Positions 5,733 through 63,400 of a DNA stretch of 64,000 nt are shown in pieces. The notes below the pieces were generated by a model. That model was not told the DNA's origin. It searched no databases and saw nothing but the letters and a program-made list of their open reading frames with translations. The stretch comes from Cyanidioschyzon merolae (taxonomy: Eukaryota): assembly GCA_000091205.1 (NCBI GenBank), contig AP006498.2; one strand, given 5' to 3'. How positions within the stretch are numbered: position 1 is the first letter of the stretch; every line of letters begins with the position of its first letter. The translations under genes were made by a program, and so were the position numbers.

Positions 5733-6329
5733 GACCTGATCGGTGGCTAGTCGTATCGATTAGACGCAGTGCGCTCCCGACACATGCAGCCGAGCCATAG
5801 AGCGCAAGCGGTATCGGTGCCGACGCTCTGCCCGGTCCGTGTCAGTCCGTAGACTCTGGTACCGGGGCTATCGCTTGTTATCGGTACACCACCAACGCCC
5901 GGGGATAATCCTAGTGCCAGAGGTCTATATAAGCTTCGCTTGCGGACGCCGCACGCTCCTCGCTGCCGGACTTCTCTGGCAGGCGCAGGCATCTGCGAAT
6001 GGACTGCGTTCGATTGCGTCGGTGCCCAGCAGCGAGGCACTTGTGAAATCGATGGATTCTGGTTGAACAATCGACTCCCATACTGCGAGAATCTGGAGAA
6101 GCGGTGGGTTCCTCACTGGATTACCGAAAATAATTGTGGACTCGGGAGTACCGTGTTCAGATCAAACGATAGATCTTACGCCATGCACTAGAAAACCAGA
6201 TTCGATTGCTAATGGACCGCTGAACTCGTCGCTCTGCTCATGCCTTGCGATCTTTTCCGCAGGTTTTCTAGTTTTCGAGACTGGACCATTGAAATGCTGC
6301 AATTAGAGCTTAAAGGCTCATAGAATTTT

Positions 6330-7560
6330 TAGGATGCTTGGTCGTCGCGTTTTCGGAGTTGCTTTATCGATTTTTTGTCGCTGGTATTTCGTGAGTTACG
6401 TCCATGAAGATGATTCGTGACATCCTCGAGCAGGGGTTCGTAAATTAACCGATCTCGTTATCAAATGTATGCGAACAAGCCTGTGCTCTTCTCTGCTTGT
6501 GTGTATGATGCTCAAATCGCCTCTTTCTCATGTTTTCGACCAGCTCTTTCTTGGCAACTCGTGTGCGTGGCAACTCGTACACCTGCATCGACAATGGGAA
6601 AAATCAACGTCATCCTTTGACGGCTTGATGACAAGCTCAGACCTAGATCCCACTGCGCCTGTGACGTCAAATCATCGATTCCGTTCGAAACACGAATCCT
6701 GTTCTCTTTGCGGTCAGCGACAAAACGGCATTCCCCAGCAATACGATGCCTTTCACGGGATATGCTCCCAGATGCTCCCGTCTCTTCTGTTTCCTTGGAA
6801 AAGGGACTTGGAGTCCAACGATTGCAACGATCGCCTCGAGTGAGGAGGGTGTCACAGCTCTGCGCAGATGCACGTAGACTGAACGAAAACTCGCAACTTG
6901 CACTTCCTCATGTATTCTGCCTCCGGTGCTTGTTCCATAATGGATAGCATCGCGTTCCACAAATTCTCTATCGAGTCAGAGCGCGTGCGCTTGAACGTAT
7001 AGCGGACAGACTGCTCCTCAGGGGTATCGCCTGGTAGGAGCCCGTGATCCTATGGCACGTCATCGGGCCCATGAACAGAGGCGAGCATCGAGTGGAGCCT
7101 TCTGTACCCGCCAAGGTCTTGCACCGAGCGATGAAGCAAGCGTTCTAGCGCCACGCGGCTGCCCTCGGAGCAGACTTGAAAGCCGTCATTGGCGTACAGC
7201 AGCACCTGACCACATCCCAGTCTCACTGCTGCAAACGGCGCGCCGACGCCCTATACGAAGATGCTGTACAATGGCGAGCGAAACGTAGATCGCAACTTCA
7301 GCTTCTGCACGAAATCCGTGAACATCATCGGGAAGCCGCGAAATCCGGACTTGGACGCTCCCATCAACATCCTTCATTTGAGAACACTGGAGCTAGACGG
7401 AAAAATTTAATCGCCGGATTCAAATCCAGAGATGGTACGGAGCAAAAGGAATCAGTCACTGAACTAGCCCCAGATGGCATACGGTGTGCTGGTATCACTA
7501 CGAAACATGCCGCACTTGAGCCTCGGCATCCGTGGTAAACGACCTGTCCATTTGATCTAA
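6330..7560 (+). mobile_element. Family-Y TnpB/Fanzor-like element, copy A (decayed, non-autonomous). Boundaries are approximate.
   Basis: Nucleotide blocks shared with copies at 25200, 34230, 42196 and 62400, for example cgtaaattaaccgatctcgtta, gctcaaa..c, caactcgtgtgcgtgg, cccgtctcttctgtttccttggaaa and ccggtgcttgttccataatggata. The downstream ORF 7176-7538 keeps a degenerate zinc-ribbon/RuvC-III-like stretch SHCCKRRADALYEDAVQW...HEIREHHREAAKSGL, homologous to copy D's CHSCAARTEAVFKKYENEKR...CRKRHKRDLDAAINIL. Confidence 0.45.
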
Positions 7561-7754
7561 ATTGACTAGAACGGACACGCCATCGGGAGAAAACTGTATC
7601 CTATCCTTTTTGTACATTTAAATCCATTTATATGCTATAACCTCCCGTTTCTTCAGCGCTCCCTCGTACCAGGGCGCGCTCGAGCGAGCGGCGCGCAGGC
7701 GCGCCCGGAGATCGACGGCCGCCGCACGGGATCGACGCTGTACGCTGCGCCCAC

Positions 7755-13480: not shown

Positions 13481-13510
13481 CATCCTACAGGCAAGTCACC
13501 CACGATCTGT

Positions 13511-18274: not shown

Positions 18275-19109
18275 TGCCGTTCGCTGATGACGAGTGCTCG
18301 TTGTTCGTCTATCGACACGATCATGGCGGCGCCCGAGCGTTTCGACTCGATGGTATCGTGGACCGGGTCGCCACCTGGATCGGACAGCTGTAGACAGTCC
18401 CGATTCCAGACAAGAGGCATGGAAACGGCCGACGTTACGGAAGCAGCTCCCGGGCGGGCAATGTCACGCTAAATTCGGGCTAGACGAGGTCGCTGCTTCC
18501 GATGCTAGGCTTGCGCGTCTTGGAAGGAAACGTATTGATCATCACACAAACATGCGGTTCGTACTGGAGTCCGTAGCTGTGATTCCCAAACTGAGGTAAC
18601 GGATCATTCCCGCACAGCCAGTGCATCGACGAACGCATCAGATACCTCAGGGTACGTTTGCGTGCCTGGAATATAAACGATAGCCCGCATTGGCTAGGCA
18701 GCTCTTTACTGGCCGCGTTGCAGCTTTGGTACCGCATCCGCAGTGTCCAGCATGCTCGCGGTGGGCGTTACTGGCTCGACGCGGCTCCCGCACCGTCCAC
18801 GCTTGTGTATCGAGCAGCGTCAGGTGCGCGCCCTGCGACGTAGACGCCGCTGCAAGAGACAACTCCTTCTTTTGCTCAGCTCGACGCTGGCGTCATGATG
18901 CAGGCTCGAGCGAGCGGGTGCGTGCTCACGCTTGAGCAACGAAAACGCGGCCAAGACGTTCCAGATGGCAGCATGCGCTTCTCCAGGTACGCGTGTCGCG
19001 TACGGTGTATCCGGCTTTGCGTCCAACAGCCAGCAGTTGCCCGCGTGTTCTTGTATGGATCTGGTGCTGCATTTGCTTCACGTATTCATTCCGAAGCATC
19101 CGAAGAGCA

Positions 19110-19310
19110 TCGATAGATGCTGGCACTCGGGTGCAACAACAACAACAACAGCAGCGATCTATGCGCAAAGCAATATCCTCGTGTTACGGTAGCCGGGCAC
19201 TGTAGTCATCGATAGATGCTCGCACTAGGGTGCATCAACAACAACAACAGCAGCGATCTATGCGCAAAGCAATATCCTCGTGTTACGGTAACCGGGCACT
19301 GTGTTCCGTG
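19110..19310. repeat. Tandem duplication of two units of about 100 bp, each containing a (CAA)n(CAG)n microsatellite.
   Basis: The unit atcgatagatgctggcactcgggtgcaacaacaacaacaacagcagcgatctatgcgcaaagcaatatcctcgtgttacggtagccgggcactgtagtc is repeated immediately with about six substitutions. Confidence 0.6.
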
Positions 19311-24864: not shown

Positions 24865-25199
24865 CGCGATGATTGATTTGGATTACGAAGGAACCTTGCT
24901 TCCAGCGAACTGCACCCGCGCTTTCTAGGTTCCTTGTAAAAAATCTCTGGGACTACTCCTCCGAGCGCTATCATGTTTGAATCATACGAGAAGCGGGCGC
25001 TAGCTGGTTGTTGCGCTCATTCCGGAGCGCGAGGCGCACCCGATCACTACGACCTGTTGATAGGGGGTACAATCCGCGAATACCCCAGCGGGTACCGTGT
25101 CATCTATCATGGTAGGATTCCAAGCGGGACGCTGAACGAATCGCTGTGTTCCTGCCTTTCGACTTTATTCCGAAAGCTTTTTAGGTGATACTTAGTTTC

Positions 25200-26530
25200 G
25201 ACATCCGAGGAGCAGCACAAAGGGCGTGCGCGTTCATACGGACTTTCAGGCATGTAGAATGCGTTTTCATTGAGAATCCTTCGACTCCTTACCGCTGGCA
25301 TTCGTTAGGATACAGGAACCGAGATGGTTCACGGCGCCAACGACCGTGGGTTTGTCAAATAATCGATATCGTTATCCTGCTCATGCGCAGGGGTCCCCAT
25401 GCGTCTCGATCCCGTTGGTCAGGCATACTGGAATCACGCATTCTTCAAATATTCGATCGTACTGGTTCAAAGCAACTCGTGGGCACAGCTATTCATGCCT
25501 CAGGACTGACGAAGAAAACGATTCGACGACGTTTCTCGACGACTTGTTCACACGCTCGTGCAGAAAGTTCACTGAGCCTGTCACGTCTATTTATAGATTC
25601 CTTTTGAAAGACAGATCCCCCGTGACCTAATGGCCATCTAAAAAACGGGGTATGCTCTCTGAGGCTGCCGTCTCTTCTGTTTTCTTGGAAAGGGCTTGGA
25701 TGCGGGTCCAAGTCACCGCTGCGATCGCTTCCAGTGGAGCGTGCTTCAGCGTTGTGTAGCTAGGGTATGTAAAAGGATCGACATTGTTCGAATGGGTACC
25801 AAGCTCAGATTTTCCTTCCGGTACCTGCCTCGTTATGGACAATATCGTGTTCCGCAAATCCGATTGTTTTAGGGAAAACGGCATAGAGTGGATTATGGGT
25901 TATCTTGGTGACTACGAGTTATTCTCAATGGCCCGACTCGAATCGGAACATGCTCAGGGCCGTCAGGAACGAACCTGGAGTCAACATATGCGTATCTCAG
26001 CAACTCTGGGCCTCCTCTTCGATCCGAGCTGGTGCCTCGTGCTCGTACCGCCACGGCTATGCGCACTGGGCTCATCGGAGTGTGCTTTCCGCCATTCGAT
26101 CGTATTTTCGGATCGAAGAGTTCCGTAGAAGCATGAAGATCAGTGTTGAACGGGGCACAAAAAGTATGTATTGCACGGTTGGCAGTGGCGGTGCAACACC
26201 CATGCGTACCAGGCACCTCAGTAGAACAATTCAGTGCGAGCAAGAAAGATTTCCGGGGGTGTTTCGGAAACAGCTGCATAGCATCTTCAAAGAACATCGC
26301 CACTCCCGGAGAAAACGCGTTTGCTGCGAAATGCTTATCGCCTGGTCGTCCGTATTTGAGTGTCAACATGAGCAATTGGGCAAAAACGCGTAAACGAAAC
26401 ATGTCGAGATTTTTCTCCTCGTCAATTCGGAGACGTGCGCTGCTCCGTCCACGAGTTGCCCATACAAAGAAAGGTCGAAATTTTTGTACAATGCGTGATT
26501 TTATCATGCTCCTCATCAGGCAATAAGAAT
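25200..26530 (+). mobile_element. Family-Y TnpB/Fanzor-like element, copy B (decayed). Boundaries are approximate.
   Basis: Shares the upstream blocks caaataatcgatatcgttatcc, caactcgtgggcacagc and gacgacttgttcacacgctcgtgcagaaagttcactgagcctgtcacgtc with copy D, and ccgtctcttctgttttcttggaaagggcttgg plus tgcgatcgcttccagtggagcgtgc with copies A, D and E. The downstream segment ggatcgacattgttcgaatggg...ccttccggtacctgcctcgttatggacaatatcgtgttccgcaaatccgattg is homologous to copies A and D. ORF 25905-26393 has a degenerate zinc-ribbon-like stretch, CEQERFPGVFRKQL...EHRHSRRKR. Confidence 0.45.
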
Positions 26531-27571
26531 AGTGGAGGTTAGTCCTTAAGGCTTGGATGATTACATAGGTTATGGTACGAGCTCGTGTTCGACGGCATCG
26601 CAAACCATCTTTACGTCGTTGAGGATATGAATTCCAGGGCCAAAAGCGCCGAGGAAGCCACTCGAAAAAATGAACCGAAAAGTCTACACCTATGGGTGAG
26701 TTTGTAAACCTTTATTGCTGCATTTCGAATTCCGAGCCTGCATATCTCAAAAAGTTTCGAAAATGTCGACATGCAGGAATAGCATGCATAGGACAGTGTC
26801 GCATTTTACTCTGCATTGATCCTAGTTCGCGGTCGATGCTTTCGTACTGCACTCTCCCAGTGTAGGATACCGGCAACGAGTGGCATTGCAGCAACATGCA
26901 AACTGTTCGACACCCGACCACGTTACAGTATGCACGAGCTTCGACAGTTCCGGGAATGTGGTGTACCTTCGATCACGAAATGCGCTCGCTCTAGCGATAC
27001 AAGGTCAAAGCGCCAGTTAATGATCGACTTGTTCTCGACTTGTCTTGCCCAGCGATGCATCTCGGTGCCAAAGCGGCCCGTAATGTACATGATACTGTAG
27101 ATCAACAACCGGAGCTCCCAATGCTGCGAATCCACGTGGTCGCTCTTTTCGGAATACGGCGGCAGTCGAGCTTCCTCTCATTGCGATTTCGATCACCTCG
27201 AAGGCGCTCGCTCACGAGACACGTCATACCGGTCGGTCCTCGCGGTGCCGAGACCACGCTTTCGACAGATCGTATAACATCCCGCAAGATGCTCCGTTCG
27301 TGCGACAGATGTTATCCCGTTCACCATCTTTGCGAGCAGACTGTGCGCTACCGCTCGATCTAACGCAGTCTCGCGAGACGCTGTGTTCGTGTGACGGACG
27401 CTGTCGTGTTCGCGATCACAGCGCCGGAGCACCGCGTTTCCAAAGGCCGCATTGCAGCGTCAATGCACCTTCGTAGGCAACGATCGGTGCCCCGTAGAAG
27501 CTGTCCAACGCGCTGATGTTCTCCAGGACACCGTCAAATGCACAGACGTCCGCCCAAGCATCGTCATTTGT

Positions 27572-31366: not shown

Positions 31367-32845
31367 ATGGAGCGAGGAATCCCGGAGGAGATACTGCGAG
31401 AGTCGACAGACGCCATCGCACAGCGTGCACGTCTCATTGAAAACGAGGTGCGTGAACTCCGGCGTGAGGAAGAACGGCTTCGTCGCGAAATCCAATCCCT
31501 AAACGAGAGAGTGAAAGAGAATGAGGAGAAGATCAAGCTCAACGCTCAGTTACCGTTCTTAGTCGCGCATGTTGTGGAAGTGCTCACGCCGGCCGCTTTG
31601 AAGCGAGCGCCCCCGTCGCTCACCGGGCCAGGAACGCAGAGTGCGCCACACGCTGAGACGGCCTTAGCAACGCAGCCGAATGGTAGTGTTTCGGAAACTC
31701 AAGGCGAAGCAAGGAACCAGCGTTTGGGCTCGGGTGCACGCGGAGGGAGCGACCTCATCAACCGGAGCTCCGGTATCACCAGCGAGACCCAGACCCCGGG
31801 CGCTGCCGATCACGAAGACGACCTTGACGACGCTGAGGAGGATGAAGGCGCTGCTCAAGAGTCGGATGCCAATCAGCAGTCACCTGCGGTCGTTGTGAAG
31901 ACTTCCACCCGACAAACAGTGTTTTTGCCCATCCCTGGACTGGTTGATGTCTCCGAGCTCCGCCCTGGTGACCTCGTCGGGGTCAACAAGGACAGCTATT
32001 TGATTCTTGAAAAGCTTCCCGAAGAGTACGACGCACGAGTAAAGGCCTTTGAGGTCGATGAAAGGCCCACGGAAGATTTCGCCGACATTGGCGGCTTGGA
32101 CAAGCAGATCGAGGAAGTAATCGAAGCTGTTGTGCTGCCGATGACGCACAAACACTTGTTTGAACGGGTGGGAATCAAGCCCCCAAAAGGGGTGCTCATG
32201 TATGGCCCGCCTGGAACTGGAAAGACGCTCCTTGCTCGCGCGTGTGCAGCACAAACCAAAGCCACATTTCTGAAACTAGCGGGAACCTCACTCGTTCAGA
32301 TGTTTATCGGAGATGGTGCCCGTCTTGTGCGAGATGCATTCGCACTGGCAAAGAAAAAGGCGCCGTCTATCATTTTCATCGATGAACTGGATGCAATTGG
32401 TACGAAACGTTTCGATTCAGATCGCAGTGGTGATCGCGAAACACAACGCACCATGCTCGAGTTGTTGAACCAACTTGATGGATTCGATCAGAACGATGAC
32501 GTTCGCGTCCTTGCTGCGACGAACAGACCAGATATCCTGGATGCAGCACTGATGCGTAGCGGTCGACTCGATCGGAAGATCGAGTTTCCCCATCCCGATG
32601 AAGCTGCTCGGGCGCGGATTCTGCGCATCCATTCACGGAAGATGAACGTTCACCCTGACGTATCCTACGAGGAACTTGCTCGCTCAACAGACGATTTTAA
32701 CGCAGCAATGTTGAAGGCGGTTTGCGTGGAAGCTGGGATGGCGGCGTTGCGTGCGGATCGAAAGGTTGTGATTCACGAGGATTTCATCGATGGGATTGCG
32801 GCTGTGCAAGCGAAGAAGAAAATGAGTTTGAACTACTATGCGTGA
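31367..32845 (+). CDS. RPT5: 26S proteasome regulatory subunit Rpt5 (6A, PSMC3-type AAA ATPase) with an acidic low-complexity insertion.
   Basis: ATG start. Walker A motif [32 protein letters not shown] and the C-terminus [17 protein letters not shown] (Rpt5 ends in NYYA/QYYA). The N-terminal coiled coil [22 protein letters not shown] and the OB segment [20 protein letters not shown] match Rpt5. About 90 aa ([23 protein letters not shown]...[26 protein letters not shown]) replace the roughly 24-aa acidic linker of other Rpt5 proteins. Confidence 0.9.
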
Positions 32846-32927
32846 TACGACCCGAAAGGTTGTGATTCACGAGAATTTCATCGATAGGATTGCGGGTGTA
32901 CAAGCGAAGAACAAGATGCGTTTGAAG
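32759..32927 (+). repeat. Duplicated 75-bp segment: the last 75 bp of the Rpt5 CDS (32759-32835) recurs at 32853-32927, immediately after the stop codon.
   Basis: cgaaaggttgtgattcacgaggatttcatcgatgggattgcggctgtgcaagcgaagaagaaaatgagtttgaa compared with cgaaaggttgtgattcacgagaatttcatcgataggattgcgggtgtacaagcgaagaacaagatgcgtttgaag gives about 90% identity. The copy encodes RKVVIHENFIDRIAGVQAKNKM in ORF 32838-33026. Confidence 0.8.
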
Positions 32928-34229
32928 AACGACGCGGGAACGCGGTTGTGTTTTGGCTACGCGGTGCCACAGAATCACACCGCGAGCGTAGCACCGGGAT
33001 TGCAGCCTGTTCAAAAGTGTGACTAGATTTTCCAGACAAGTTGCACTTGGATCGCTCCGTATTGTGAACCGGATCATTCCTGCACCCGACAATTGAGGCA
33101 TGGTCGGGTTGTGCTGCAAGCAGCTGTCCGGTGAGCGGTGCTCATGGGTACCTTACCATTACGTTTACTCAAAGCGCCGAATACCATATGGATATTGAAA
33201 CCAGGCTCCCAAGCTCCTGACCACTTTCATGTACCTCATTGGTTACATCATGCTCGAACTTGTCCGTGAATACAGTGAAAAGCGATTCAGTTTCGAGCGA
33301 GACAGGTGTACCATGGTGATTGCGACGTTCCCCGCTGAAGCATGGCGAGAGCCTCGTCGAACTGCCTTCTCAACAAGGTATCAAAGAACAGCAAATACAA
33401 CCCTTGATTTTGGCGCATGTCTGTGCGAGCTTTTGGTTGCAATTTGACGACGAAAATGAGTCACAAATCGACATTCACTGCTCTTCTCATTTCAAGAGTG
33501 CACATCTAGAAAGTTCCGAAAGCGCAGCAGCAGCAGCAGCAGCAGTTTCAGATATGGCGACAGCCTGATGCCCGGCCCTCCGCAATACCATTCTCGATGC
33601 ACTTCGAATTGCGGAACTACGTGCGAACAGCACGTGCGCGACCTCGTTCACAAGCAGTGCGATGTGCTGACCATCCCCGAAAAACCGCTGATACACGACG
33701 TAAAGCCACACGGCGAAAGCCTCTGAGCGTAGCTACCCCATGGGACGACATTGCGCACCGAGCAGGGAGTCAAGAACTTGCCCCGTCTACTCCGAGAAAC
33801 GAAATTGCATATGTGCGTTGCTGCAGACGCCTCCCGCCAATACCTGGCGAGTGCGGGAACGCATCCACGCTGACGAACACACGTTGTGCCGGTGCCATGT
33901 GATCCCGCATCACTTTATCGACTCATATTGTGGCATTCGAGACGCCGGATTCGCGATACCCTTTGTTTCCATACTTTGCATACCAGATGCAGCAGTGAAT
34001 GCAGCGCGGAATGATGCAGCGTGCACCTTTCTCGTCGAAAATCTCAATGACCACAGCTGCACGAGGCGCAGGCGTCCTTCACCCGCGTCCGATGCATATG
34101 GAACACGGAACGACTTGCCGGGTTCCTGAATGGAGTTTTTTTTGCGAAAGCTTTTCAGATGCACAGTTTCGAGAATCGCATCGCAGCAATTAGAGATGAT
34201 GGACGCAAACGTGGTCTCCGGATCCTCGC

Positions 34230-35055
34230 AAGCCTTCTCGGAATGGATCATATGACGCTTTGCAAATGGAACCTGGTTACGACACCGGAAGCGAGATGAA
34301 TCGCGATTTGTCGAATAACGCTTCGTAAATCAACCGATATCATTACCAAGTGCATTCTCGCAAGCATCAAAGCTTCTGCTGTTGTTTCCTTTTCGTGCAG
34401 CATGCTCAAAGCACGCATTTTTCAGGTTTCGATTCTTTTAGGCAACACGAGGGCGCAGCCATTGGAGCCATCCATTGACGACGAAAGAAAATCGATTTCG
34501 TCTCTTGACGACTCGTTCATTGGTTCATGCGGCAAGCACCTTGAACAAGTCATATCAATGAATCGACTCCGTTCGATAGCCGAATGCTCCTCTCCTCCTG
34601 GCCATTGATGAAACGATATTCCACGACAGTATGATGCCTCTGATGAGATATGCGCTGAGCGGCTCTCGTACGTGCTGGCTGCGTTTCACAGGATCTTGAA
34701 CTCGGACTTGAGTCATCCCAGCGATCGAGTAAGCGGAGAGTGCGTCGTCGCTTTACACGAACGGAGCATTGACGGATCGAAGGCATATCCAACATTCTAT
34801 TCTCCTGCAGCGGAGGCGCTCTTCCTCGCCCGGTCTAAACACCTTTTGCAGACTGACAATATGGGCGGACCTATATTCTGATAAGCGCCTCCTCGACAGA
34901 GTCAATCTTCACGACAGTGCTGTTCCATAAACCTTATCATTGCAAATCGAACAAGACGTTTGGTATGGAGATCTGGATCGACCTCCAAAGCACATGTCTC
35001 TCATGTTGCTGCTGCTGCTGCTGCACGGTGTGTCAGTCAGCCGAAGATCGATGCG
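34230..35055 (+). mobile_element. Family-Y TnpB/Fanzor-like element, copy C. It is truncated at its 3' side where it meets family-X copy 2.
   Basis: cgtaaatcaaccgatatcattacc, gcatgctcaaagcacgcatttttcaggtt, cgactccgttcgata, gagatatgcgctgagcggctctcg, cttgaactcggac, cagcgatcgag and cattgacggatcgaagg are homologous blocks shared with copies A, B, D and E. There is no TnpB C-terminal region, and the homology stops near 35055. Confidence 0.4.
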
Positions 35056-35059
35056 TCTA

Positions 35060-36480
35060 TTGTTCGTGAAACAAAAATGTTTCATGACCCTGGCAGGTAT
35101 ACATTTACCCATTTACAGACGCCTTCCAGCCATTTTGGACCCGTCCCCTGCTACCGATTTCAGTTTCTCCTTGCACATCTCGAGCATGAGAGGCTGCCTC
35201 ACAAAGTCAGCTCGTGTCAGTTTTTCGGGTCTCGTCTTCAGTGCCACACATCTTCTGATACTGATGGCGGCTTTGAAGCCTCGGCTCACGTGCTCCATGC
35301 GTGCTCCCGCGCTGGTTAAACTTGCCGATGCAAGGATTCCACCGACTCGTGCCCGTTACGCTACTACAGTCCCGTCATCGGTCCGTCGAGGCGAACACTT
35401 TTTGCCGCCTATCTCCCCTCATGATCGTAGTCGTCGTCACTTGCTCTTCTTCGCTCGATACTCCGCGAGAAGAGGTTTTTTTCCTTGATTAGGCATCCGA
35501 GGATGACGGCCCTCCAGGATCCTCGACTTTTACGCACATACCTTTTCCTTAGATTTTTTTATTTATTCAGATGAACCCACTTCTTTATGCACATAGGTGT
35601 GGACCTACGCGGAGCGACTAGAACTTGTGGAAAAAAGAAATTATATGCCCGGCTTGCTACGGTGTGCTGAAAGCTCCAGCGATTCGTCCAGTGGAGCAAT
35701 CATGATACGTTTCACGATAGAAACTACGCCTTCGATTGAATTCAACCTCGGAGCGAATGGATTCATGAAAAGCAGCTCTACACGGTTGCATTCGCGAAAG
35801 CTCGAACGCAACGGGAATGGTGAAATGCCGCGTTGTCGAATAGGAGGACGTCGCCAGACGTCAGCGGAAAAATCCCCAATAATCCGTCGAAGTCGGTGCT
35901 GTTGTACGAGCCTCTTCTACGAGCGAAACTGAGGCGGCCAAATGGATCCACTCTATCTCGAACAGATGAAGGTATCGTCGTTCTCCTCGAGTTCAATCGT
36001 ACACACAACGATCCTTCTACTCTCCGCGAGTACCCATGTAGGGTCCGAACGTCCCGTCCGCAGCAAGTCTCAGCGACTGAAAAACACAAACCGACGTCTC
36101 CGTACAACATAACTATCGCGACGTTCCCGGAACGGTGTAGGTGCAATTTCGGTGAAAGATAGCCGTGGGTGAACTAGGACTCTCTTCTCTTGCGACGGTA
36201 TCCCAATGCTTCCAGAACCCAATGAATTAGTTATTGAGAACCGAAGAGAGCGCGAGAGAGACGCGTATGCCAACTAGAATCGTCGTTTTTGCTTTTCGTA
36301 AAGTGACCAACGGGTCGATTCCTACCGTTGACCAAAGGCACGCTTAGAGCACACTAGTTTTCGCGCAGTGCGCATCTACTTGTTTCTGTCAGTGCTCCTC
36401 AGCTATCAGAGTACTGTGGTATGACTGACCTGAATGAGGAATGCAGAGTCCCCCGCACCACTCAGTAAAGAATATATATC
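35060..36480 (-). mobile_element. Family-X TnpB/Fanzor-like transposon remnant, copy 2 (more decayed).
   Basis: Its ends are homologous to copy 1 (see the 12160-13480 feature). The minus-strand ORF 35113-35298 encodes RGFKAAISIRRCVALKTRPEKLTRADFVRQPLML, in which the RuvC-III Asp is replaced by Gly but the C-terminal tail is conserved. ORF 35778-36146 has FGRLSFARRRGSY, matching FGCLSFARRKRSY in copy 1. Confidence 0.5.
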
Positions 36481-36678
36481 CTAGAGCCAATTCGTCTCCG
36501 ATCTATACAACGCATTGCACCGTAACGTCGACCTCCTGCCACACACTGCGAACTAGCATTCCATAAGAGGCAGTGGCGTTGGAACAACCTCTCGCTGGAC
36601 GCATCTAGCGAACTTCAACGTTCGACGCGCAAGGATTCCGGATGCTATTCTTGTACGCGTTCGTACTGCCGTCGAGGG

Positions 36679-41922: not shown

Positions 41923-41944
41923 ACCTCATTTGTAGGAGGATGCG

Positions 41945-41955
41945 CACCAGCAGGT

Positions 41956-41999
<44 letters not shown>

Positions 42000-42000: not shown

Positions 42001-42195
42001 CGAGCCAAGTGCGCTGCTGCGGAAGTGCTCCGAATGGCTTCGCAATAGCGCCCTGCACCTCTGTCAGATTCAAATGGAACACAAAACTGCTCGCCATGTT
42101 CCTGTGTTGAGGCTTTTTAACCAAAGTCTGTTCAGGCGCAGAGCCTCGACATGCGTAACGCAGCACAACGAGTTCAGGAATTCATGATTAGCTAT

Positions 42196-43300
42196 AGGAT
42201 TCTAGGTCGTCGTTCCGGAATGGCTCATTGGATTCTTTCCCGCTGGAATTTATTGAGTCATTCACAGCAAATTGATCGGCGACGCCCTCGAACAAGAATT
42301 CGTAATAAAAAACTGATACCATGATCTAGTTTATTCGTACAAGCCGGGTATCATGTCCTCCTTTCCATATGTGGAGCACGCTCAAAGCATGCGTTGTTTG
42401 AGTTGTGGATCTTTCGGTTTCAAGAAAACTCGTGGGTGTGGCTAAGCGCGCAAGCGAATGGTCGACGATAAAAGCTCTCGATGTTGTCCCTTGGCGACTT
42501 GTTTACAAGCTCATGCGCAAAACTTCTCTGAACTTGTCACGTCAGGTCGTCGATAGCGTGTTTGGAAGACAAATTATTCAAACTTTGCGCCCATCCACGA
42601 ACTGTTACTCGATAACTTCATGAAACCGCTAACAGCAAATGGTCTCAAAGGTTCCTGTCTCTTCTACATGTGTGGAAGAGCGTCTTCGACTAGGGGTTTC
42701 GTCATCGCGGCGATCGCTCCCAGTGGAGCATGCGTCACCGCTTTGCAGAATGGGATCGCAGACGGATCGACATTACCCTGACTGGTTCTCCAGCGAAGAG
42801 TTTTCTTCCGATTCTTTTTCTCATCATGGACGAGATTCTTTTCTAGAGATCGTTGATTGTATCGGAGAGCATACCCGCCAACGGGATCGCAAAGAAGAAG
42901 CTCATGACATTAAGGTACGCTACAGGACCTGGATACAGACCAGAGCATTGAGTGCATCCTTCTGCAGCCGTACAGTGAATGTATCGAGCACTGGTGCAGG
43001 CTTTTTCGCGCCACAGGGTGGTCCTCGTAGGCTGCGGTGTGATGAACATATGGCAAGACTTGACCACCGTCAAGTGTCACAGCTGTGCAGCGCGCACCGA
43101 GGCTGTATTCAAAAAATATGAGAATGAGAAGCGAATCGTAGATCGCGCCTTGTTTGAGGGCATGACGTGCATCGACAACTGCCGGAAGCGACACAAACGC
43201 GACTTGGACGCTGCCATCAACATCCTGCGACAGCTGACAAACAGCTGGAGTCACATGTGAGACCAGCGTCTTGAAAGCCGGGGATCAGTGTGTGTGTGTG
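42196..43300 (+). mobile_element. Family-Y TnpB/Fanzor-like element, copy D (best-preserved 3' half).
   Basis: It shares all family-Y nucleotide blocks (aggattctaggtcgtcgttccgg, gagcacgctcaaagcatgcgttgtttgagtt, aactcgtgggtgtggc, ggcgacttgtttacaagctcatgcgcaaaacttctctgaacttgtcacgtc, cctgtctcttctacatgtgtggaaga, ggcgatcgctcccagtggagcatgcgtcaccgc, gacggatcgacattaccctgactgg). It ends with a TnpB C-terminal coding region, and a (GT)n tract follows the stop. Confidence 0.55.
42830..43260 (+). pseudogene. TnpB/Fanzor-like nuclease 3' fragment (family Y copy D). The zinc-ribbon and RuvC-III segment is intact in one 93-codon ORF.
   Basis: ORF 42979-43260 reads YRALVQAFSRHRVVLVGCGVMNIWQDLTTVKCHSCAARTEAVFKKYENEKRIVDRALFEGMTCIDNCRKRHKRDLDAAINILRQLTNSWSHM. 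This is the TnpB architecture L.YKa...G..v..V..yTSq.Cs.C ... C..CG ... DRD.NAA.NIlr, placed directly before the stop. The upstream frame (42639-43121) carries a possible RuvC-II-like segment, FLEIVDCIG. The 5' half of the gene is missing or degenerate. Confidence 0.6.
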
Positions 43301-43302
43301 TG
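43283..43302. repeat. (GT)n microsatellite at the right end of family-Y copy D.
   Basis: gtgtgtgtgtgtgtgtgagtgt. Confidence 0.8.
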
Positions 43303-44673
43303 TGAGTGTCTTTGACGTCGAAAAGCAAGCAGTGTCGAGAAAAGGCCCGAAAGGCTGGTGTTGATGACTCTCGGAAGATACGCTCACTAAAGCATGTGCG
43401 CTCAAGTTGGAGAAACTATCCCATTTTGTTCTGGCATATACATGGCAGACTGGCTGATAGTTCAGTGCCTATTTCTCAACAGCATTCCAATTGCTTGTTT
43501 CGAAAGTCATCGTGGAGCACCGAGTCCAATGGGAACGTCATGGAGTCAGCGACGTTTCCGACGTTTGCTGCTGCTCCAAGTCCATTCAAGGCATTTGTGC
43601 GTCCTGAGCACACCTCTGTAGAGCCCTCTCGTCCTTTTTCTATTCGGGTACGTGATCAACGACGTGGAAGCGAGCGAGGCAGCAATACCAAAGGCCTCGA
43701 CGGGTAACCTTGAGTTCAGGTGCCTCGAAAGCCACGTCCGCGTACGCGCTGAAGATCCCCCGAACGACGTCCTTGTCGCACCGAGTCTGGCACGAAGCGT
43801 TCGGTTTGAGTGCAGATGCCAGAAGTGCACGCGTCATACTTGGCGGCTCATGCTTATCATAGCCGACTACTCATGTTCTTGGGTGTGAAGCGTGGCATCA
43901 ATGACCGTGCGCTAACCGGATATCCGGCAGCGTTTGGTTGCCCTGCAACCCTACGACGTCCTCACAGGGCCTGCTCAGTGCCCTATGCATACTTTCTACC
44001 AGCGGGCAGCGAAAACCCAGCGCCATAGATCCGCAAAATCGAATACTGGTACGTGACGGACCCTGTCCGCCACGTGCTGTTCGTGGCTCAGGCGCAGGTT
44101 CAATCACACACAAGTCCCTGCAATATGCACCCACAGAACAAACCCCAACCGCGGACTGGTGCCTGCGTTCAAGACCGATCGCTCGCAGCCACGAGTCCCC
44201 AAACACCTACAAGCACACACCCATACCCTAACTGAGACTGATGAACCCGCCAACGAACCTGCGTTCCTCAATGCGGTGAGCCTCGCTCCGCTGCACGCAG
44301 CAAGTGCACGGGTACTGGAACGTCATCCCCAGTGCGCGCTGGCGGCTCGAGCCGCTGCTCCGTACGAAAACATCGCCCCCACTATAAAGCCAAGAAGCGT
44401 CCGCGAATCAAGCGAGGTTTCCATCCAGATCACCACTTCAAAGTCCACCTTCTGAGCGGTCTGAGTCGATGTACCAAGGCTCAACGCTAGTGGACGGCTT
44501 TTGAAAGCTCCGCAAAGACCGCCTCCGTCTGGGGCACGCGCTCGGCCGTTGCGAGCCGAGCCGGCGGGCCTGGTGTTCGTCAACGCTTCGTGGCTGCCAC
44601 CAGACGACTTGATCTTCCTTCACTGGGGTATTCATATCACCAACATAGGCATTTCCAAGCCTCATTTTGTTGG

Positions 44674-52469: not shown

Positions 52470-53899
52470 GGAGCAGCGGCACTGGCTGTCACGCTGTACG
52501 AAACTCGCGGAGAAACTGTCCAGCAACCCATGTCCGACTCGAGTGGTGGTGCTGCTGTCTCTTCTGGACTTGGTGTTGTCTGGCGTGTTGTCACTGGGGC
52601 AGGCGGCTCTGCTCAAGAGCATGGTTCAAGCTATCTCGTTCCTGGTGCTGGTTCACAGGCGTCGTGGTCAGCATACCATGTCGGTAATACGTCATTGTTA
52701 TAGCAGCTGGACGACGTATGCGTCTAGCACTGAGCACCGCACAGACCGGAGTTCATCGATGACGTGCGTGAATGTGTTTGAGAGATCGTTTATCGGGGCA
52801 GACGACGAAATAGCCCCCGACACGCTGCCATACTGTGTCAGGCATTTCATCGCTCATATCCGCACACAGGTGCACGCGTCTTTGGCGACATGAACGTAGC
52901 CATACGTTCAATACCTGTTACGAACCGATGCGATCATGACCCAGTTTGGTATGCCGGGTCAGTGCGGAGGTATGTGCATTGTGTAGACACGAGACGGACA
53001 CAGGCCTTGGGAACAGTACCAGCCGACGCACCATGATGCTGGCCCTTCATTGATCGACGACGAACAAGCACAAACCATTGAGCACGGTGCGTTCCTTCGG
53101 CTCTGGAAGCTATGGGCATCTGAGGGCAAACGAGGGGCCTGCAACGAGTCTACCCTGCGCATCGTTCACCTTGAAACCTAGGCTCCGGCATCCAAGAGTC
53201 GCGCACCTACGATACGCAGGCGTTCAACGTCGCCGCATGAGCGCGTCGCGTTTGCCGCTTCATCGACCAACGTGCCGCCGACGTCATAGGATCGATGTGC
53301 CGGCAGCGGGCAGTTTCCACGCATCTATCGCGTCTACCGGGAGGCTACAAAAAAAAGCCACCCGCCAATGTTGCTGCTGCGCATGCTGCCTGCGGTTTAT
53401 TCACAGGCAACAGATCCGTTTATCCCATGCGTCTTCGAATACCTCCGAATGTGTGGGCATCACGTCCAACGCACCGACCCTACACGATAAAGCATGCCGC
53501 TGCCCAGAAGTCGTCACTCTTTGCCTGATGGAGGTTGCACGAATCCATGCAGGGATCTTAGAACACTCGACGTGCATCATCATCCAGATATGCGAACCCT
53601 AGTACGTTTCATCAGCTCAAAGCTCCACCGAGCATTACCCCAGCGTTCCCTGCAAAGGTCTCTCTTCGCTCAAAAATGAGCCCCTGCGTGCCGTGCCTGC
53701 CTCAACCGCTTACCACAGCACTGAGCACACCGGTGCAGACGCAGCACGCAGACAGAACGTCTTCACAGAACCAGTGAACGTACCAGCTCGACGACACCCG
53801 CTGCCCTATGGCGTGCCGCAGGTTCCCCGTTCGTCTCTTTTGCAGCGTTCTTGACGCCTCTGCGAGCACCCCTCGAGTTGCGCACGGCACCGGTACTGA

Positions 53900-58002: not shown

Positions 58003-60012
58003 GCGAGTGTCGCTTATCTCGCTAACTGCATCCGATGAAGACGGCACACTGCCCCGCGCGCTATGTTCATGTTAAGCAAATTTTTCCGAAAGTTTCCCAG
58101 GTGTGCAAGCTTGATAATTTGTATGAAGCAATGAGTACGTTTCCAGTCGTACATCGATTTAGGATTGTGCATCGGTGTTGTGGAGTGCTTTTTCAGAATA
58201 TTTTGCGGGCGGCATTCGTTCGTCATGAGAATGAAGATGATTCGTGACGCCCACCGCCTACGATTCCTGGAGTAACCGATAGGGCCGTCCAACGCACAGG
58301 TACAAGCCTCCACTCTTCTGCTTTCCCAAAGAGCAGTATACCCAGGTCACGCATGCTTCACGTTTTCGATACGTCTCTGTGGAGCGATACTTCATGGGTG
58401 AAGCAAGTTGCGCCGCTGCATGAGCAGCTCGAAGAAAGTCTTGTTCATCGTCATCCGTTGACGACTTGGTCACCCGCTCATGCCGAACGTTCACTGAACA
58501 TCGCACCTCAAGCAATCGACTCGGATCGAAACGCAAATCCTTTTCTCTTTGCGAGCATCGGTGAGCCTGCATGCCACTGCAGCATGATGCCAGCTCGAGT
58601 GCTATACTCGCAGCGGCTCCCGTGTATCGTGTTTGCGTGGAACATCGTTTTAGAGTTTATTCACCGCAGCGATCACTTGACATGGGGATTGCGTCAGCGC
58701 TCTATACGAAGCGAGCGTAGGCAGATTGAACGTTCTCGATTTCATCTGCAGCCTGGAATTTTCTTCCGATTCTTGCTCTACCTTGGAAAAGATTGCGTTC
58801 CGCTGATCCCCTTCTCTTCCGGATAATATCATCGAACACAGGGTGGTTCATCCTCTGTTCTCCAGCTTATCTTCCGTGATTCAATACCATGGAGAACGTT
58901 TGCGGTACCGTGGACAACAAATTTAGCGAAGCAAATGCACGTTTCGATGCACCGGAACCTGCTCGATGCTTAGTGGTGCTCGACGCTTTGGGCACCGCGA
59001 CTGCGTCCACCGGGGCTCTTCGGAGCTTGTTCTACGAAATTCGTTGAGGTTTGCGGATCTCATATTTCCATCGAGTCATGAAACAAAGAGATGAACGAGC
59101 CACAAAGAATGAGTATGGATAGCTTGCTCATCTATGGCGGCACATAGCCCATGCACACCTGGCATGCTACGGATCCTACAGTTTACCCGCAACGCAGATG
59201 CCCTAAAGCGTTTCGAAAAGAGGTGCGCAGCTTTCGCTGAGAACGTCGCCATTGTCAGACGGAACGCCTGGCTGCGAGAAGCCCATCGCTTTTCTCTGAC
59301 GCTACGATAGTGAAGCGATCGCCTATGAGATACGAACGCTTGCGAGAACATAGACCTCGTGTAGACACATATGCACTTGTTCGAAGGATGCCCCAGCAAC
59401 GCGCTTGCCGCTATCCATGTTCGCGTACCCTGCTCCAAGCATAGATCGTTGCAGGAGCCAACGCGTCGCCACACCGTGTACCACGGAGGTCGTCTCAGGG
59501 ATCCTGATGCACAACGACCGTTACCAGCGTCGTTGTAGAGAAAGCGCAGCTCAGGCGCCGATGCACCACACTGCTGGTAGAGGTTTCCTCTGGAACGTAT
59601 GAACCCAACCCATGGACCAAGAACTGTGATCGTTCGCATATACCATCAGGCGGTCTTGTTCGCGTTTCGGCAGCTAGTGGAGGTGCACCCGTCTTGGGCA
59701 CGAAGTGTCGTCATTGTACACGAGGCCGCGCATGGCAAGTACGCCTGCAGAAGCTCCGCGTGAGCCATAGGGCATGCTGTCCCGCGTTTTTTACTCTGTC
59801 TGCTGGCACCATGCTGGGCTGCCTCGGCAGACACAGTCCGCGGATACAGATCTGGAGAATTCGCACTTGCAGATGAGTCTGTTCTGAGCGCCGGCACAGC
59901 GCGTTCTAGTTTACGATTCCCGTAGAAAGGAGGCGGTTGTGGGTGTCCCAACGAGCTGTCCGCCAGAGCGCCAGCGATCCGCAGTATTCGTTCATAGGCT
60001 TCCTGGACCTGC

Positions 60013-62044: not shown

Positions 62045-62399
62045 AGACGTTTCAACGCAGGCACTTGTCCTCTCTTGCTACAGGCTTGCAAGAAAGCGAC
62101 AATATGCTGAACTGGTCGATGAGTTCGTGCTTTGTAATCCTTTTCCGAGAGCTTAGTGGATATACAGCCTCTGCATACAAAGTATATACATAAAGGTTAC
62201 TTGTATATCTACTGTTGTAGGTTTCTCGATTGTCGTCTCGGAGTTGCCCTATCGAAGGTTGGCGTTTGGAACTTGTTTCATCACCGGAAACCAGATAATT
62301 CGCGACGCACGCAAACAAGTGTTTCTAATGTAACCGATATCACTATCCAATGTATATATTCATGCCTCCATGCTTCTCGTTTGACAACGTGTACCGTAT

Positions 62400-63400
62400 T
62401 GCAACCGTGCATTGCTCCAAGACTTCGATCGCTCGCATGAAGTCAACTTGTGGACGGAGCGACTCGCACCGAAGCGTAGACGACTAGAGGTCTCGATATC
62501 GTCCGTATCGTCTTGTGCATACGCTCATGTCGAAAATTCAGTGAATCACTCCCGTTGAGTGATAGTCGATTCCGTTCGAACAATGAGCGCTCTGCGCGTT
62601 ATGGCGACAGACAGAACGGGCGTCGATGACAGCTGCAGCAGCATGATATCTGTCATGGGATATGCTGCCAGAGGCTCCCGTCTCTTCTATTTACATCGCA
62701 ATAGGACCTTGAACTCGGGTGTCAGGCATCACAGCGATCGCTCCCATTTGAGCATGCGTCATCGCCTTGCATGACGGTATTGCTGGCGAAAAAGGAATCA
62801 CTGGGACCCCGGCATCGTCTGAGTATCCGGATCCAGCGACGCGTGACGGATTCGATGACGTGGAGACGATTAAGCGACGACTCGGTTGCCAGTCTGCACG
62901 GGATGAAGGAGTTTTTCATGAATGGAGCTTCGGCAAGGCCCAGCGGCTCGAATGATAGCGAGCGCTTGATGAGCCTCCATCGTAGATTCTTCGAAAGCGT
63001 ACACGCTGCGTAGAAAATCGACCAGCTGCTTACGAGCAACACGTCTGCGAAAGCGATGGTGCCGAGTTGTCTGGAGCGGTGCTCCGGAGCCCCTGGCGCG
63101 TCGAGACATTCGACTTTTCCGAACGCATCTTTCCCTCGAACTTATCAGCGTCTCGATTCGCGCCTATTTCGTTTCGTTGGGGACGGGCGCCCGCACGACA
63201 GCGCGAGTCCGATACGACCGATGGAGAGCAAATGCGTCGAAGAAGCAGACGAGGAACTAATCGAAGACATCGAGTGTATGAAGCGAACGAAGCACTTTTC
63301 GCTCTGACATTCGATGCCACTTATGGATCACTGGGGGAACAAAGCCCCACGGAATGCAATGCAAACTGCGTATTAGAAGTGAAAATTAAGCCATAGGAGT
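62400..63400 (+). mobile_element. Family-Y TnpB/Fanzor-like element, copy E (internally shortened and decayed). Boundaries are approximate.
   Basis: ggtctcgatatcgtccgtatcgtcttgtgcatacgctcatg, cgattccgttcgaacaatgagcgc, gggatatgctgccagaggctcccgtctcttctatttacatcg, ccttgaactcgggtg, cagcgatcgctcccatttgagcatgcgtcatcgc and gtgacggattcgatgacgtggagacg are homologous to copies A-D. The downstream ORFs (62767-62955, 63067-63396) carry degenerate counterparts of copy D's TnpB 3' region. Confidence 0.4.

Follow-up and report, generated by a model that had tools for sequence, protein, structure and literature searches.

Decayed Tc1/mariner-type transposon copies, probably carrying a Fanzor1 stub, in the nuclear genome of Cyanidioschyzon merolae

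Family Y, a repeat present in seven copies (A-G, one of them inverted) in a 64-kb window of Cyanidioschyzon merolae 10D nuclear DNA (the window being the whole 64,000-nt stretch analysed), very probably represents a DNA transposon of the Tc1/mariner superfamily whose copies are dead and decay neutrally, and in which an internal deletion left a stub of a Fanzor1 gene. The progenitor would have comprised, in this order, a terminal inverted repeat (TIR), a transposase gene (HTH and DDE_3), a short spacer, a Fanzor1 gene on the same strand, a 3' non-coding stretch and the second TIR. One internal deletion of ~2.6 kb, common to all short copies, would have taken ~60-70 codons from the end of the transposase gene, the catalytic E among them, then the spacer and ~725 codons from the start of Fanzor1, with RuvC-I. 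The outcome would be a non-autonomous element of ~1.37 kb with both ends kept, multiplied presumably by cut-and-paste through a transposase supplied in trans. Copies A and D would represent this short form, B and F a longer form with the transposase C-terminus, and C, E and G 5' fragments. Judged from sequence, family Y appears to be a second, mariner-borne Fanzor1 lineage that the compact C. merolae genome holds besides CMe-1A.

The family-Y relics (Table 1) occupy ~7.1 kb of the window and stand 30-200 nt from gene ends; neighbouring proteins are identical to the C. merolae 10D entries BAM81895-7. A first-pass annotation had recognised five copies in the same orientation; these five are homologous, collinear and on the plus strand, but F and the inverted G had escaped it, and the orientation of the whole set (6/7 plus) is not significantly biased (two-sided binomial p ~0.125). 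The conserved blocks that it had pointed out recur in the alignment (TTCGTAAA.TAACCGATATC, GCTCAAA, AACTCGTGGGC, GTCACGTC, CCGTCTCTTCT and GCGATCGCTCCCAGTGGAGC.TGCGTCA). The window was scanned by nhmmer with an HMM built solely from 12 metagenomic copies (A and D were left out), and only A and D proved to be complete elements in which the Fanzor tail and the right end were matched. For B, C, E, F and G the match stops at HMM positions 435-794. In the tail region of B, C, E and F 54-61% of positions differ from the consensus, which is close to random, and BLASTN at standard settings matched their 3' regions to no other copy; those of B and F match each other only under permissive scoring (62% identity between 26014-26341 and 58958-59289). 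Of the degenerate tails formerly read in A, B and E, the first is borne out and the other two find no support. The consensus, 1.38 kb long and drawn from 18 copies (metagenomic ones included), is usable for masking or counting the family, with the proviso that metagenomes were scanned with two peptide patterns of the DDE core, so that the copy sample is biased.

Table 1. Family-Y features in the 64-kb window (positions counted from its first letter)
Feature	Position	Strand	Basis
Copy D, complete short-form element, ~1.37 kb	42062..43436	+	nhmmer HMM 4-1374 at 42063-43437, E=9e-207
D 5' TIR, TGTCAGATTCAAATGGAACA	42062..42081	+	18-copy alignment, consensus TIR
D transposase relic (Tc1/mariner, DDE_3), HTH to second catalytic D	42145..42850	+	frameshifts and stops; tblastn with consensus transposase: 42145-42285, 42312-42560, 42470-42769
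GCGATCGC site within D transposase relic	42710-42717	+	
D Fanzor1 C-terminus relic, one frame, two stops	42862..43260	+	tblastn with consensus tail: 52% identity, E=1.6e-35
D 3' non-coding stretch, Fanzor stop to right TIR	43261..43416	+	conserved among full-length copies
D 3' TIR, TATCCCATTTTGTTCTGGCA	43417..43436	+	sequence and consensus TIR
Copy A, second complete short-form element	6197..7566	+	nhmmer HMM 14-1363 at 6211-7553, E=7e-227
A transposase relic	6322-7044	+	tblastn E=5.8e-47
A Fanzor tail relic	6984-7404	+	tblastn E=6.5e-32
Copy B, long-form relic: 5' end and transposase beyond short-form junction	25124..26341	+	nhmmer HMM 15-794
Copy G, inverted 5' fragment (HMM 5-435), tail-to-tail with B	26383..26814	-	nhmmer E=1.8e-61; tblastn of transposase N-terminus
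Copy C, 5' fragment	34085..34781	+	nhmmer HMM 2-701, E=3e-118
Copy F, long-form relic	58030..59289 (end approximate)	+	nhmmer HMM 4-782
Copy E, 5' fragment	62103..62790	+	nhmmer HMM 19-696, E=4.8e-85

The conserved 5' module, annotated at first as the decayed half of a nuclease, is by homology the relic of a separate Tc1/mariner (DDE_3) transposase gene, and we suggest that its annotation be corrected to that of a mariner-type transposase fossil. In this half an ORF of ~255 codons, interrupted by a single stop, is restored in the 18-copy consensus; it scores 45.1 bits against Pfam DDE_3 (PF13358; cut-off 28.6, E=1.2e-11) and aligns with an intact 324-aa transposase, P0141, from Met1 to residue 253 of the latter (37% identity over 261 aa, E=2e-52). 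The blocks VAIDETAF, GYAPRGSRL, VIAAIASSG, EGSVDGSKFL and FIMDNIAFHKS are common to the consensus and to intact Tc1/mariner-type transposases. The catalytic triad is incomplete: the first D (VAIDETAF) and the second (FIMDNIAF) are found in the consensus, the alignment with P0141 ends at the NP of the catalytic NPIE motif, and NPIE itself is deleted in A and D. The third residue survives only as a relic in the long-form copy F (GWFILCSPAYLP*FNTMENV), to which residues 236-297 of P0141 align at 58835-59011 (E=5.7e-5); in copy B, intact transposases align up to aa 264. At the N-terminus the HTH matches of the consensus are weak (HTH_Tnp_Tc3_2, E=0.007; HTH_33, E=0.07), and this part aligns with intact relatives in which HTH matches are present (RILGRLFGVAPSTLCRWN vs RKLGVIFGVSPSTICRWN). 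A six-copy consensus had remained below threshold for both DDE_3 and IS630, and twelve further copies had to be added; a DDE_3 match is on record for the natural ORF P0038. A profile built from window and metagenome fragments matched 452 representative proteins, mostly short fragments, among which were complete DDE_3 transposases of 286-324 aa. A PDB sequence search with the transposase consensus returned noise only. Two candidate motifs were discarded on the way: VIAAIAPSG as a mutated RuvC-I (GIDPG, D to A), as this block aligned to DDE_3, and a DDE 'E' at ...NKGEH, as that stretch belongs to the Fanzor frame (GNGGEH).

Directly after the transposase relic, and in a different frame, the consensus carries a tail (KKPVIIGYGTG...GLWEHLTTAKCHRC...CMKC...HRDLNAAINILRLL...RPAYL) that corresponds to the C-terminal ~125-150 residues of a Fanzor1. 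With an HMM made from the C-termini of eight Fanzor1 proteins of Bao & Jurka it reaches 49.2 bits, and with Pfam TNB (PF07282) 28.7 bits, above the 26.3-bit cut-off; both the zinc ribbon ([TS][TS]-x-x-C4) and the RD.NAA.NI stretch (TNB and RuvC-III) can be read in it. Within the tail relic of copy D (GIAKKKLMTLRYATG...TTVKCHSC...CIDNC...RDLDAAINIL), a 93-aa ORF at 42979-43260 (TTVKCHSC...CIDNC...RDLDAAINILRQ) runs straight into its stop. This ORF lies just below the same cut-off (PF07282, Cas12f1-like TNB, 25.5 bits, E=1.5e-5), ranks second among 1627 window ORF fragments with the Fanzor1 C-terminal HMM (E=0.006) and matches, by BLASTP, an intact 898-aa Fanzor1 (E=3e-5; see below), so that the zinc ribbon and RuvC-III C-terminus claimed for it from the outset are genuine. 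The same tail recurs in A and in metagenomic copies and lies within the TIRs. The residues specific to Fanzor1 are G500 and E536 (in the vvvgxG strand and before the TS motif, respectively; Bao & Jurka 2013, PMC3627910). Both are present in the consensus (PVIIGYGTG, GLWEHLTTAKC), where they align to the HMM columns, and in the 898-aa protein (PLVVAVGS, GVWEHNTTAKC), and both motifs are degraded in copy D (LMTLRYATG, NIWQDLTT). No significant similarity to Fanzor2 (ACa-1, ACa-2) was detected; a word-indexed protein search with the 93-aa ORF returned only itself, a PDB sequence search only a 23-residue motif match to LaTranC, and NCBIfam IS200_TnpB only 12 bits over the last 24 residues. These comparisons point to a tail of Fanzor1 type, rather than of bacterial TnpB or Fanzor2 type, of which the ORF of copy D is the best surviving piece, having survived by chance. 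The RuvC-I motif and the N-terminal WED/REC region are absent from family Y, which thus encodes no complete nuclease. We also observed that the JGI 'transposase' label on the ORF of copy D sits on the Fanzor stub. The window as a whole contains five Fanzor-tail relics (A, D and three of the CMe-1-like family X), not the seven TnpB-like relics previously counted; one family-X relic, on the minus strand (CMe-1 tblastn match at 35116-35527), lies downstream of copy C, and no Fanzor tail is detectable in copy B.

The spacing from DDE core to tail is the same in five distinct metagenomic loci and in copies A and D, which both align across the junction to the HMM built without them. The junction can be placed only within ~70 nt, where weak similarity to the respective families is seen in the transposase frame (…YSPKGSP) as well as in the Fanzor frame (…VLAEGIAQKK). 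Among the copies recovered, none of family Y was full-length (transposase plus whole Fanzor1), and the architecture is documented by an intact relative from the metagenomes (L034, positions 378-4395). This element (4018 bp, 65% G+C) has 29-nt TIRs (TA followed by CAGGGATGGAAAAAC...) and is flanked by TA on both sides. It encodes (L034/L035) a 313-aa DDE_3 transposase (P0174) and then, after a 160-nt gap and on the same strand, the 898-aa protein, which lacks a recorded Pfam family, reaches 49.6 bits with the Fanzor1 HMM and bears a RuvC-I motif (LAIDPGRAN) ~150 aa upstream of the start of the Y tail. Over 150 aa its C-terminus shares 30% identity with that tail (E=3e-14; GVWEHNTTAKCFGC vs GLWEHLTTAKCHRC). 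L034 resembles family Y in gene order, strand, transposase (31% identity over 260 aa, E=1.7e-39) and TIR core (CAG..ATGGAA), but at 4.0 kb and with both ORFs intact it is a distant relative and not the Y progenitor. A 4.0-kb element of this kind, less ~2.6 kb, gives the 1.37-kb structure observed in Y; we reason that the N-terminal ~725 residues of the nuclease were removed by one common deletion, and did not decay in place as had been supposed. The 898-aa Fanzor1 could, moreover, be of practical interest as a candidate RNA-guided nuclease.

The copy alignment fixed the termini and made the element wider than first noted. Copies A and D end in 20-nt TIRs (TGTCAGAttAAAATGGAACA) beginning with CAG, and the consensus ends (TGTCAGATTAAAATGGAACA and TGTTCCATTTTGTTCTGACA) match at 18/20 positions, a score that 0/500 shuffles reach. 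The TIRs are visible in D and most full-length copies, as is typical of Tc1/mariner elements; none was found at the 3' ends of B and F, and no clear one in family X. The TA target-site duplication to be expected of Tc1/mariner elements could not be recovered, as the flanks of these old copies show no consistent TA. The ~500-bp repeat, as rightly stated before, is not a free-standing MITE: it forms part of a 1.37-kb element with coding relics. The partner gene that had been anticipated (TnpA/Y1 or a serine recombinase) is neither present nor expected, the sole partner relic being that of the DDE_3 transposase.

Family-Y copies decay neutrally and encode nothing functional now. Mismatches to the consensus are evenly spread over the three codon positions in the transposase (0.254/0.257/0.266, p=0.43) and in the tail (0.356/0.328/0.339, p=0.11), and every copy contains stops and frameshifts, all being pseudogenes. 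Copy D occupies the same site in three environmental strains, and differences of environmental strains in its ORF amount to 0 synonymous and 4 non-synonymous changes. Strain divergence (0.3-1.2%) is too low for a region-by-region test of constraint; the 3' non-coding stretch, which in D includes a (GT)n run at ~43287-43306, is the most variable between strains (up to 4%). Since the copies have diverged by 21-33% from the consensus and are fixed in wild strains at identical sites, we regard them as old residents.

Several other readings were weighed. The short forms may have been favoured for an ωRNA that they still made, being guide-RNA-carrying parasites of the autonomous element that borrowed a Fanzor1 nuclease in trans for homing or retention, and not random deletion debris; the idea stems from Y and X, two separate transposase-plus-Fanzor1 lineages, both surviving as ~1.4-kb derivatives that combine the transposase side with only the 3' end of Fanzor and the stretch downstream of it, and we consider it unlikely.

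A native chimera, made of the DNA-binding domain and part of the catalytic domain of a mariner-type protein joined to a Fanzor zinc ribbon, and possibly domesticated or regulatory, would account for the uniform architecture of all full-length copies, for some environmental ORFs (P0041, P0043) that cross the junction in one of the two frames and for the broadly similar layout of family X. It is nevertheless quite improbable: the two parts are in different frames in the consensus and are separate genes in the intact relative, neither activity is possible, the transposase having lost its catalytic E and the nuclease both RuvC-I and RuvC-II, and the even codon-position substitutions, together with stops and frameshifts in every copy, speak against a maintained protein.

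The sequence for Fanzor and TnpB guide RNAs lies at the gene's 3' end and the end of the transposon, a part that the short form keeps. The relics might, then, have been co-opted as non-coding elements, either as an ωRNA-like transcript or as regulatory sequence beside housekeeping genes, which would suit their closeness to gene ends and the slightly better folding of the consensus 3' region compared with shuffles (z=-2.0). We hold the chances of this to be slim: RNAalifold on 11 copies found no shared pairs, the 3' region of copy D folds no better than z=-0.4, Rfam gave no match, so that none of the three approaches supported an ωRNA-like structure, the 3' non-coding stretch is the part that varies most between strains, and no intact Fanzor1 partner was found.

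The model of the first-pass annotation, a TnpB/Fanzor element whose 5' module is the decayed N-terminal half or 5' region of the nuclease and whose C-terminus is best preserved in D, was right about that C-terminus (a true TNB/RuvC-III relic), and the spacing of ~160 aa from AIDxTAF to TTxKCxxC even fits the D-X(125,275)-[TS][TS] rule. We find it very hard to sustain, as the module exceeds the DDE_3 cut-off and matches intact transposases block by block from Met1, copy F keeps the third DDE motif and the two halves are in different frames. Upstream of the tail, moreover, there is no resemblance to a Fanzor1 N-terminus or RuvC-I, the space being filled by the DDE_3 relic, and TnpB-related Pfam families besides TNB gave no match at E<=1.

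The octamer GCGATCGC (HIP1) in the conserved core had been taken as a hint of a bacterial source. It occurs at 7 sites in the window against 3.2±1.7 expected (4/100 shuffles reach 7), and three of these are one ancestral position in copies B, D and E, encoding A-I-A of the transposase motif VIAAIASSG. A recently acquired bacterial (cyanobacterial) insertion sequence of IS630/TnpB type has next to nothing to recommend it beyond this octamer and the coverage of bacterial IS630 by DDE_3 (NCBIfam IS630 match weak, E=0.004), given that common descent leaves 4 independent sites and no enrichment, that the copies are old residents and that the tail is of the Fanzor1 type, a clade of exclusively eukaryotic proteins (Bao & Jurka 2013, PMC3627910). 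The suggestion of a cyanobacterial origin is withdrawn; family Y is an ordinary transposon fossil, neither a working nor a bacterial element.

Mariner elements in which a Fanzor1 follows the transposase on the 3' side have already been described (Bao & Jurka 2013, PMC3627910), and the TIR-bounded PGv-1, PUl-1 and relatives carry a mariner-type transposase in the 5' ~1 kb and a Fanzor1 on the 3' side (PMC3627910). Family Y holds relics of both genes in that order; it differs from them in being a 1.37-kb internal-deletion derivative in which neither protein is complete and the TA duplication is unrecoverable, and in its host, a red alga whose only previously reported Fanzor family was the unclassified CMe-1A. 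CMe-1A/CMe-1 shares with Y the genome, the Fanzor1-bearing repeat and a similar age (~80% identity to consensus). Described as unclassified and without TIRs (Repbase; Bao & Jurka 2013, PMC3627910), it is distinct from Y, which has recognisable TIRs and a DDE_3 relic. The early view that Y is a second Fanzor-bearing family is corroborated by the lack of nucleotide similarity between the first 630 nt of the CMe-1A consensus and the Y copies, by the low similarity of the Y tail to the CMe-1 protein (22% identity, E=0.003) and by a CMe-1 tblastn search that, in the window, matched only minus-strand family-X relics. Family X has a layout broadly similar to that of Y (transposase plus Fanzor tail), and suggests that the 'unclassified' CMe-1 lineage, too, was carried by a DDE_3 transposon. 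With bacterial TnpB (IS200/IS605, IS607) and Fanzor2, family Y shares the C-terminal [TS][TS]xxCxxC...CxxC...RDxNAAxNI; unlike the IS200/IS605 and IS607 elements it has a DDE_3 relic and TIRs in place of a Y1 or serine recombinase partner and subterminal hairpins, and unlike TnpB and Fanzor2 its tail has the G motif particular to Fanzor1 (VIIGYG) and an E three residues ahead of TT (WEHLTT). Finally, family Y resembles Tc1/mariner MITEs and deletion derivatives in its preserved ends, deleted interior and many dispersed intergenic copies, but with 1.37 kb, ~1.2 kb of which are recognisable coding relics, it is a deletion derivative and not a true MITE.

Three housekeeping proteins of the window were found to be identical to entries of C. 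merolae 10D (BAM81895-BAM81897, on a chromosome of 908,485 bp), in a stretch that is densely packed with genes (G+C 50-59%), and copies C and D of family Y were recovered in place, at the same locus, from three metagenome contigs (0.3-1.2% divergence from the window). By scanning JGI metagenomes with degenerate peptides we retrieved 26 loci, to which L008 (from the look-up of the protein P0037) was added; 12 metagenomic copies of this set were taken as distinct (two pairs are partly redundant) and aligned with six window copies to give an 18-copy alignment. Several simple repeats were encountered in the window: trinucleotide repeats, (GCA)n/(GTA)n, directly 3' of the protease gene (41940-41995), in a spacer where strains are 5-14% apart; a tandem array (53798-55600) whose 52-bp period shows in at least 35 overlapping 300-nt registers and which coincides with the lowest G+C (46.6%) and highest AT skew of the window; and two short local tandem duplications, at 19108-19302 (96-nt units, 96% identity) and at 32759-32939 (87-nt units, 86% identity), the latter repeating the last codons of the proteasome subunit gene at its 3' end.

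The 5' module of Y, which the first-pass annotation had taken for the remains of a nuclease 5' half, is, by homology, the relic of a transposase gene. The 18-copy consensus restored a ~255-codon ORF with one stop (MYRLDIRSAAIRAYGFIRSFRILGRLFGVAPSTLCRWN ... PLFVAIDETAF ... GYAPRGSRLF ... VIAAIASSGACVTALHEGSVDGSKFL ... CFIMDNIAFHKS ... YSPKGSP) that matched Pfam DDE_3 at 45.1 bits (cut-off 28.6) and Tc3-type HTH only weakly. When fragments from window and metagenomes were combined into a profile and run against 1.84 billion representatives, 452 proteins were returned, and as these were mostly short fragments, many decayed copies must exist; complete DDE_3 transposases (286-324 aa) were also among them. 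With one intact protein (P0141, 324 aa) the consensus could be aligned from Met1 to residue 253 (37% identity, E=2e-52); the alignment breaks off inside the catalytic motif, at the NP of NPIE.

The zinc ribbon and RuvC-III C-terminus proposed for copy D are indeed retained, in a 93-aa ORF (42979-43260; TTVKCHSC...CIDNC...RDLDAAINILRQ) that matched Pfam PF07282 (Cas12f1-like TNB) with E=1.5e-5 and 25.5 bits, slightly below the 26.3-bit cut-off, and whose last 23 residues align weakly with the LaTranC RuvC-III end and with NCBIfam IS200_TnpB. Directly 3' of its transposase relic, the consensus encodes, in another frame, (Q)KKPVIIGYGTGRGNGGEHRVEPSVSVKGMHRAMKQAFTRH...VVVGLWEHLTTAKCHRCEW...GKRNVDRNFCLCMKCIDNSRKLRHRDLNAAINILRLLTRELDGKERPAYL; this tail exceeded the Pfam TNB cut-off (28.7 bits), scored 49.2 bits on an HMM built from the eight Fanzor1 C-termini of Bao & Jurka, has both positions (G and E) that are specific to Fanzor1, and had no significant match to Fanzor2 proteins. 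The 3' part of Y is thus a Fanzor1 stub. Of the window copies, A (E=6.5e-32) and D (E=1.6e-35) were the only ones with a detectable tail. The spacing between DDE core and tail is identical in five distinct metagenomic loci and in both these copies, indicating that the junction is a family character.

The five same-orientation copies listed initially proved homologous and collinear, with all the quoted sequence blocks present in the copy alignment, and two more were added: F, on the plus strand, and G, inverted and partial. Similarity ceases abruptly at both ends of the 18-copy alignment, ~1.38 kb apart, where inverted repeats are located (TGTCAGATTAAAATGGAACA / TGTTCCATTTTGTTCTGACA; 18/20 positions matching, a score reached by 0/500 shuffles); together, boundaries and repeats set the limits of A and D (see table). 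An HMM made solely from the 12 metagenomic copies matched A and D in full, whereas its matches to B, C, E, F and G were confined to its 5' 435-794 positions. Of these five copies, three (C, E, G) are 5' fragments and two (B, F) are relics of a longer form: F retains the third catalytic transposase motif and the sequence that follows (a stretch reading GWFILCSPAYLP*FNTMENV... aligned with P0141 residues 236-297), B also extends beyond the junction, and the two share ~330 nt of 3' sequence absent from the short form (A and D). This longer form may have been the full-length element, although its Fanzor part is unrecognisable in both copies.

Coordinates of the features discussed
Feature	Position	Remarks
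Housekeeping proteins BAM81895-BAM81897		26S proteasome subunit, NifU-like protein, C-terminal processing protease
Copy A	6197-7566	limits from alignment ends and inverted repeats
Copy D	42062-43436	limits from alignment ends and inverted repeats
Family X	12173-13578, 35058-36573 (~1.4 kb each); 22394-22807 (shorter relic)	all minus strand
Apparently intact Tc1/mariner-Fanzor1 element, 4.0 kb	L034:378-4395, L035:351-4366	ENA metagenome contigs

Copies B (+) and G (-) lie tail to tail (25124-26814), forming a 1.7-kb block with inverted element 5' ends at both borders that may stem from rearrangement or from nested insertion; a 236-aa minus-strand ORF (25893-26603) is in part the transposase relic of G. 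A 187-aa ORF (59076-59639, minus strand) without Pfam match overlaps the B-homologous 3' extension of F (to ~59289), and may be a spurious ORF on transposon debris rather than a gene.

Among the complete transposases, P0174 (a 313-aa DDE_3 protein) was located on metagenome contigs L034 and L035; 160 nt downstream of it, in the same orientation, comes an 898-aa ORF with no Pfam family in its database record. The 898-aa protein has a RuvC-I motif (LAIDPGRAN), scored 49.6 bits on the Fanzor1 HMM, and its last 150 residues match the Y tail (30% identity, E=3e-14; GVWEHNTTAKCFGC vs GLWEHLTTAKCHRC, RPAYLCP vs RPAYLKP). The element as a whole (4018 bp, 65% G+C) is TA-flanked, with 29-nt TIRs starting CAGGGATGGAAAAAC, and its presence on 11 contigs suggests that it may be active in its host. 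A related transposase (L036:6001-6930; JGI contig Ga0104935_100011, 30 kb) is called within a single ORF together with a helicase N-terminus of ResIII/DEAD type (P0115), on a contig that also includes genes for UvrD-helicase, RING-finger and ADP-ribosylglycohydrolase proteins. A helicase gene belonging to a large virus, or to another GC-poor genome, may here contain a transposon insertion.

We infer that the parent of the short form was laid out like this intact relative (transposase, spacer, Fanzor1), and that one internal deletion of ~2.6 kb would have taken out the spacer together with ~60-70 codons from the end of the transposase gene and ~725 from the start of the Fanzor gene; an L034-type element minus ~2.6 kb matches Y in layout and length. 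DNA transposons usually suffer such deletions through abortive gap repair. The short form would then have spread by means of transposase supplied in trans, presumably from full-length copies now lost or unsampled.

The Y copies are fossils, and the open frame of D is a chance survivor. All of them contain stops and frameshifts, they diverge from the consensus by 21-33%, and their mismatches are spread evenly over codon positions, as in neutral decay, both in the transposase part (0.254/0.257/0.266) and in the tail (0.356/0.328/0.339); environmental strains differ from the D ORF by 4 non-synonymous and 0 synonymous changes. No shared RNA structure was found in the Y 3' region, where folding was unremarkable for D (z=-0.4) and only marginal for the consensus (z=-2.0), and an Rfam search of the window gave no match. 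The 3' non-coding stretch of D contains a (GT)n microsatellite (43287-43306). The HIP1 octamer, previously read as a hint at a bacterial source, loses that meaning: GCGATCGC occurs 7 times (3.2±1.7 expected), three of these represent a single ancestral site, and it supplies the codons for A-I-A within transposase VIAAIASSG.

One Fanzor1 family, CMe-1A, has been reported in C. merolae (~150 copies, each ~80% identical to the consensus), without TIRs and left unclassified (Bao & Jurka, PMC3627910). Since CMe-1 protein matches fall elsewhere in the window, all on the minus strand (12313-12570, 22394-22807, 35116-35527), and the CMe-1A 5' consensus has no match in Y, Y is a different family. The three family X relics carry a CMe-1-like Fanzor1 tail (55% amino acid identity to CMe-1); the two long ones (67-70% mutual identity) have their own DDE_3 transposase relic upstream of it (QLNPIEGVL kept in X1, LLFDNAAFHHS in X2), which suggests that the 'unclassified' CMe-1 lineage was also borne by a Tc1/mariner-type transposon. 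The 630 nt that open the published CMe-1A consensus have no match in these two copies, and no clear TIR was found for family X. A 342-aa metagenome ORF (P0079) runs from a CMe-1-type tail (RMEFANKDFNAAINIIRCAVLETRPDELTRANFVGQ) directly into a Y transposase relic; elements of types X and Y thus also lie side by side, or one inside the other, in places other than window copy C.

No open-access paper was found to mention a mariner-type Fanzor element in C. merolae, and on that literature we rate Y as an apparently undescribed mariner-borne Fanzor1 family. A decayed derivative of this kind will not surprise the specialist; the useful outcome is the corrected anatomy of Y, its consensus and the intact 898-aa relative. 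Mariner elements with Fanzor1 have been described (Bao & Jurka, PMC3627910), and their gene order is the same as that of the L034/L035 element.
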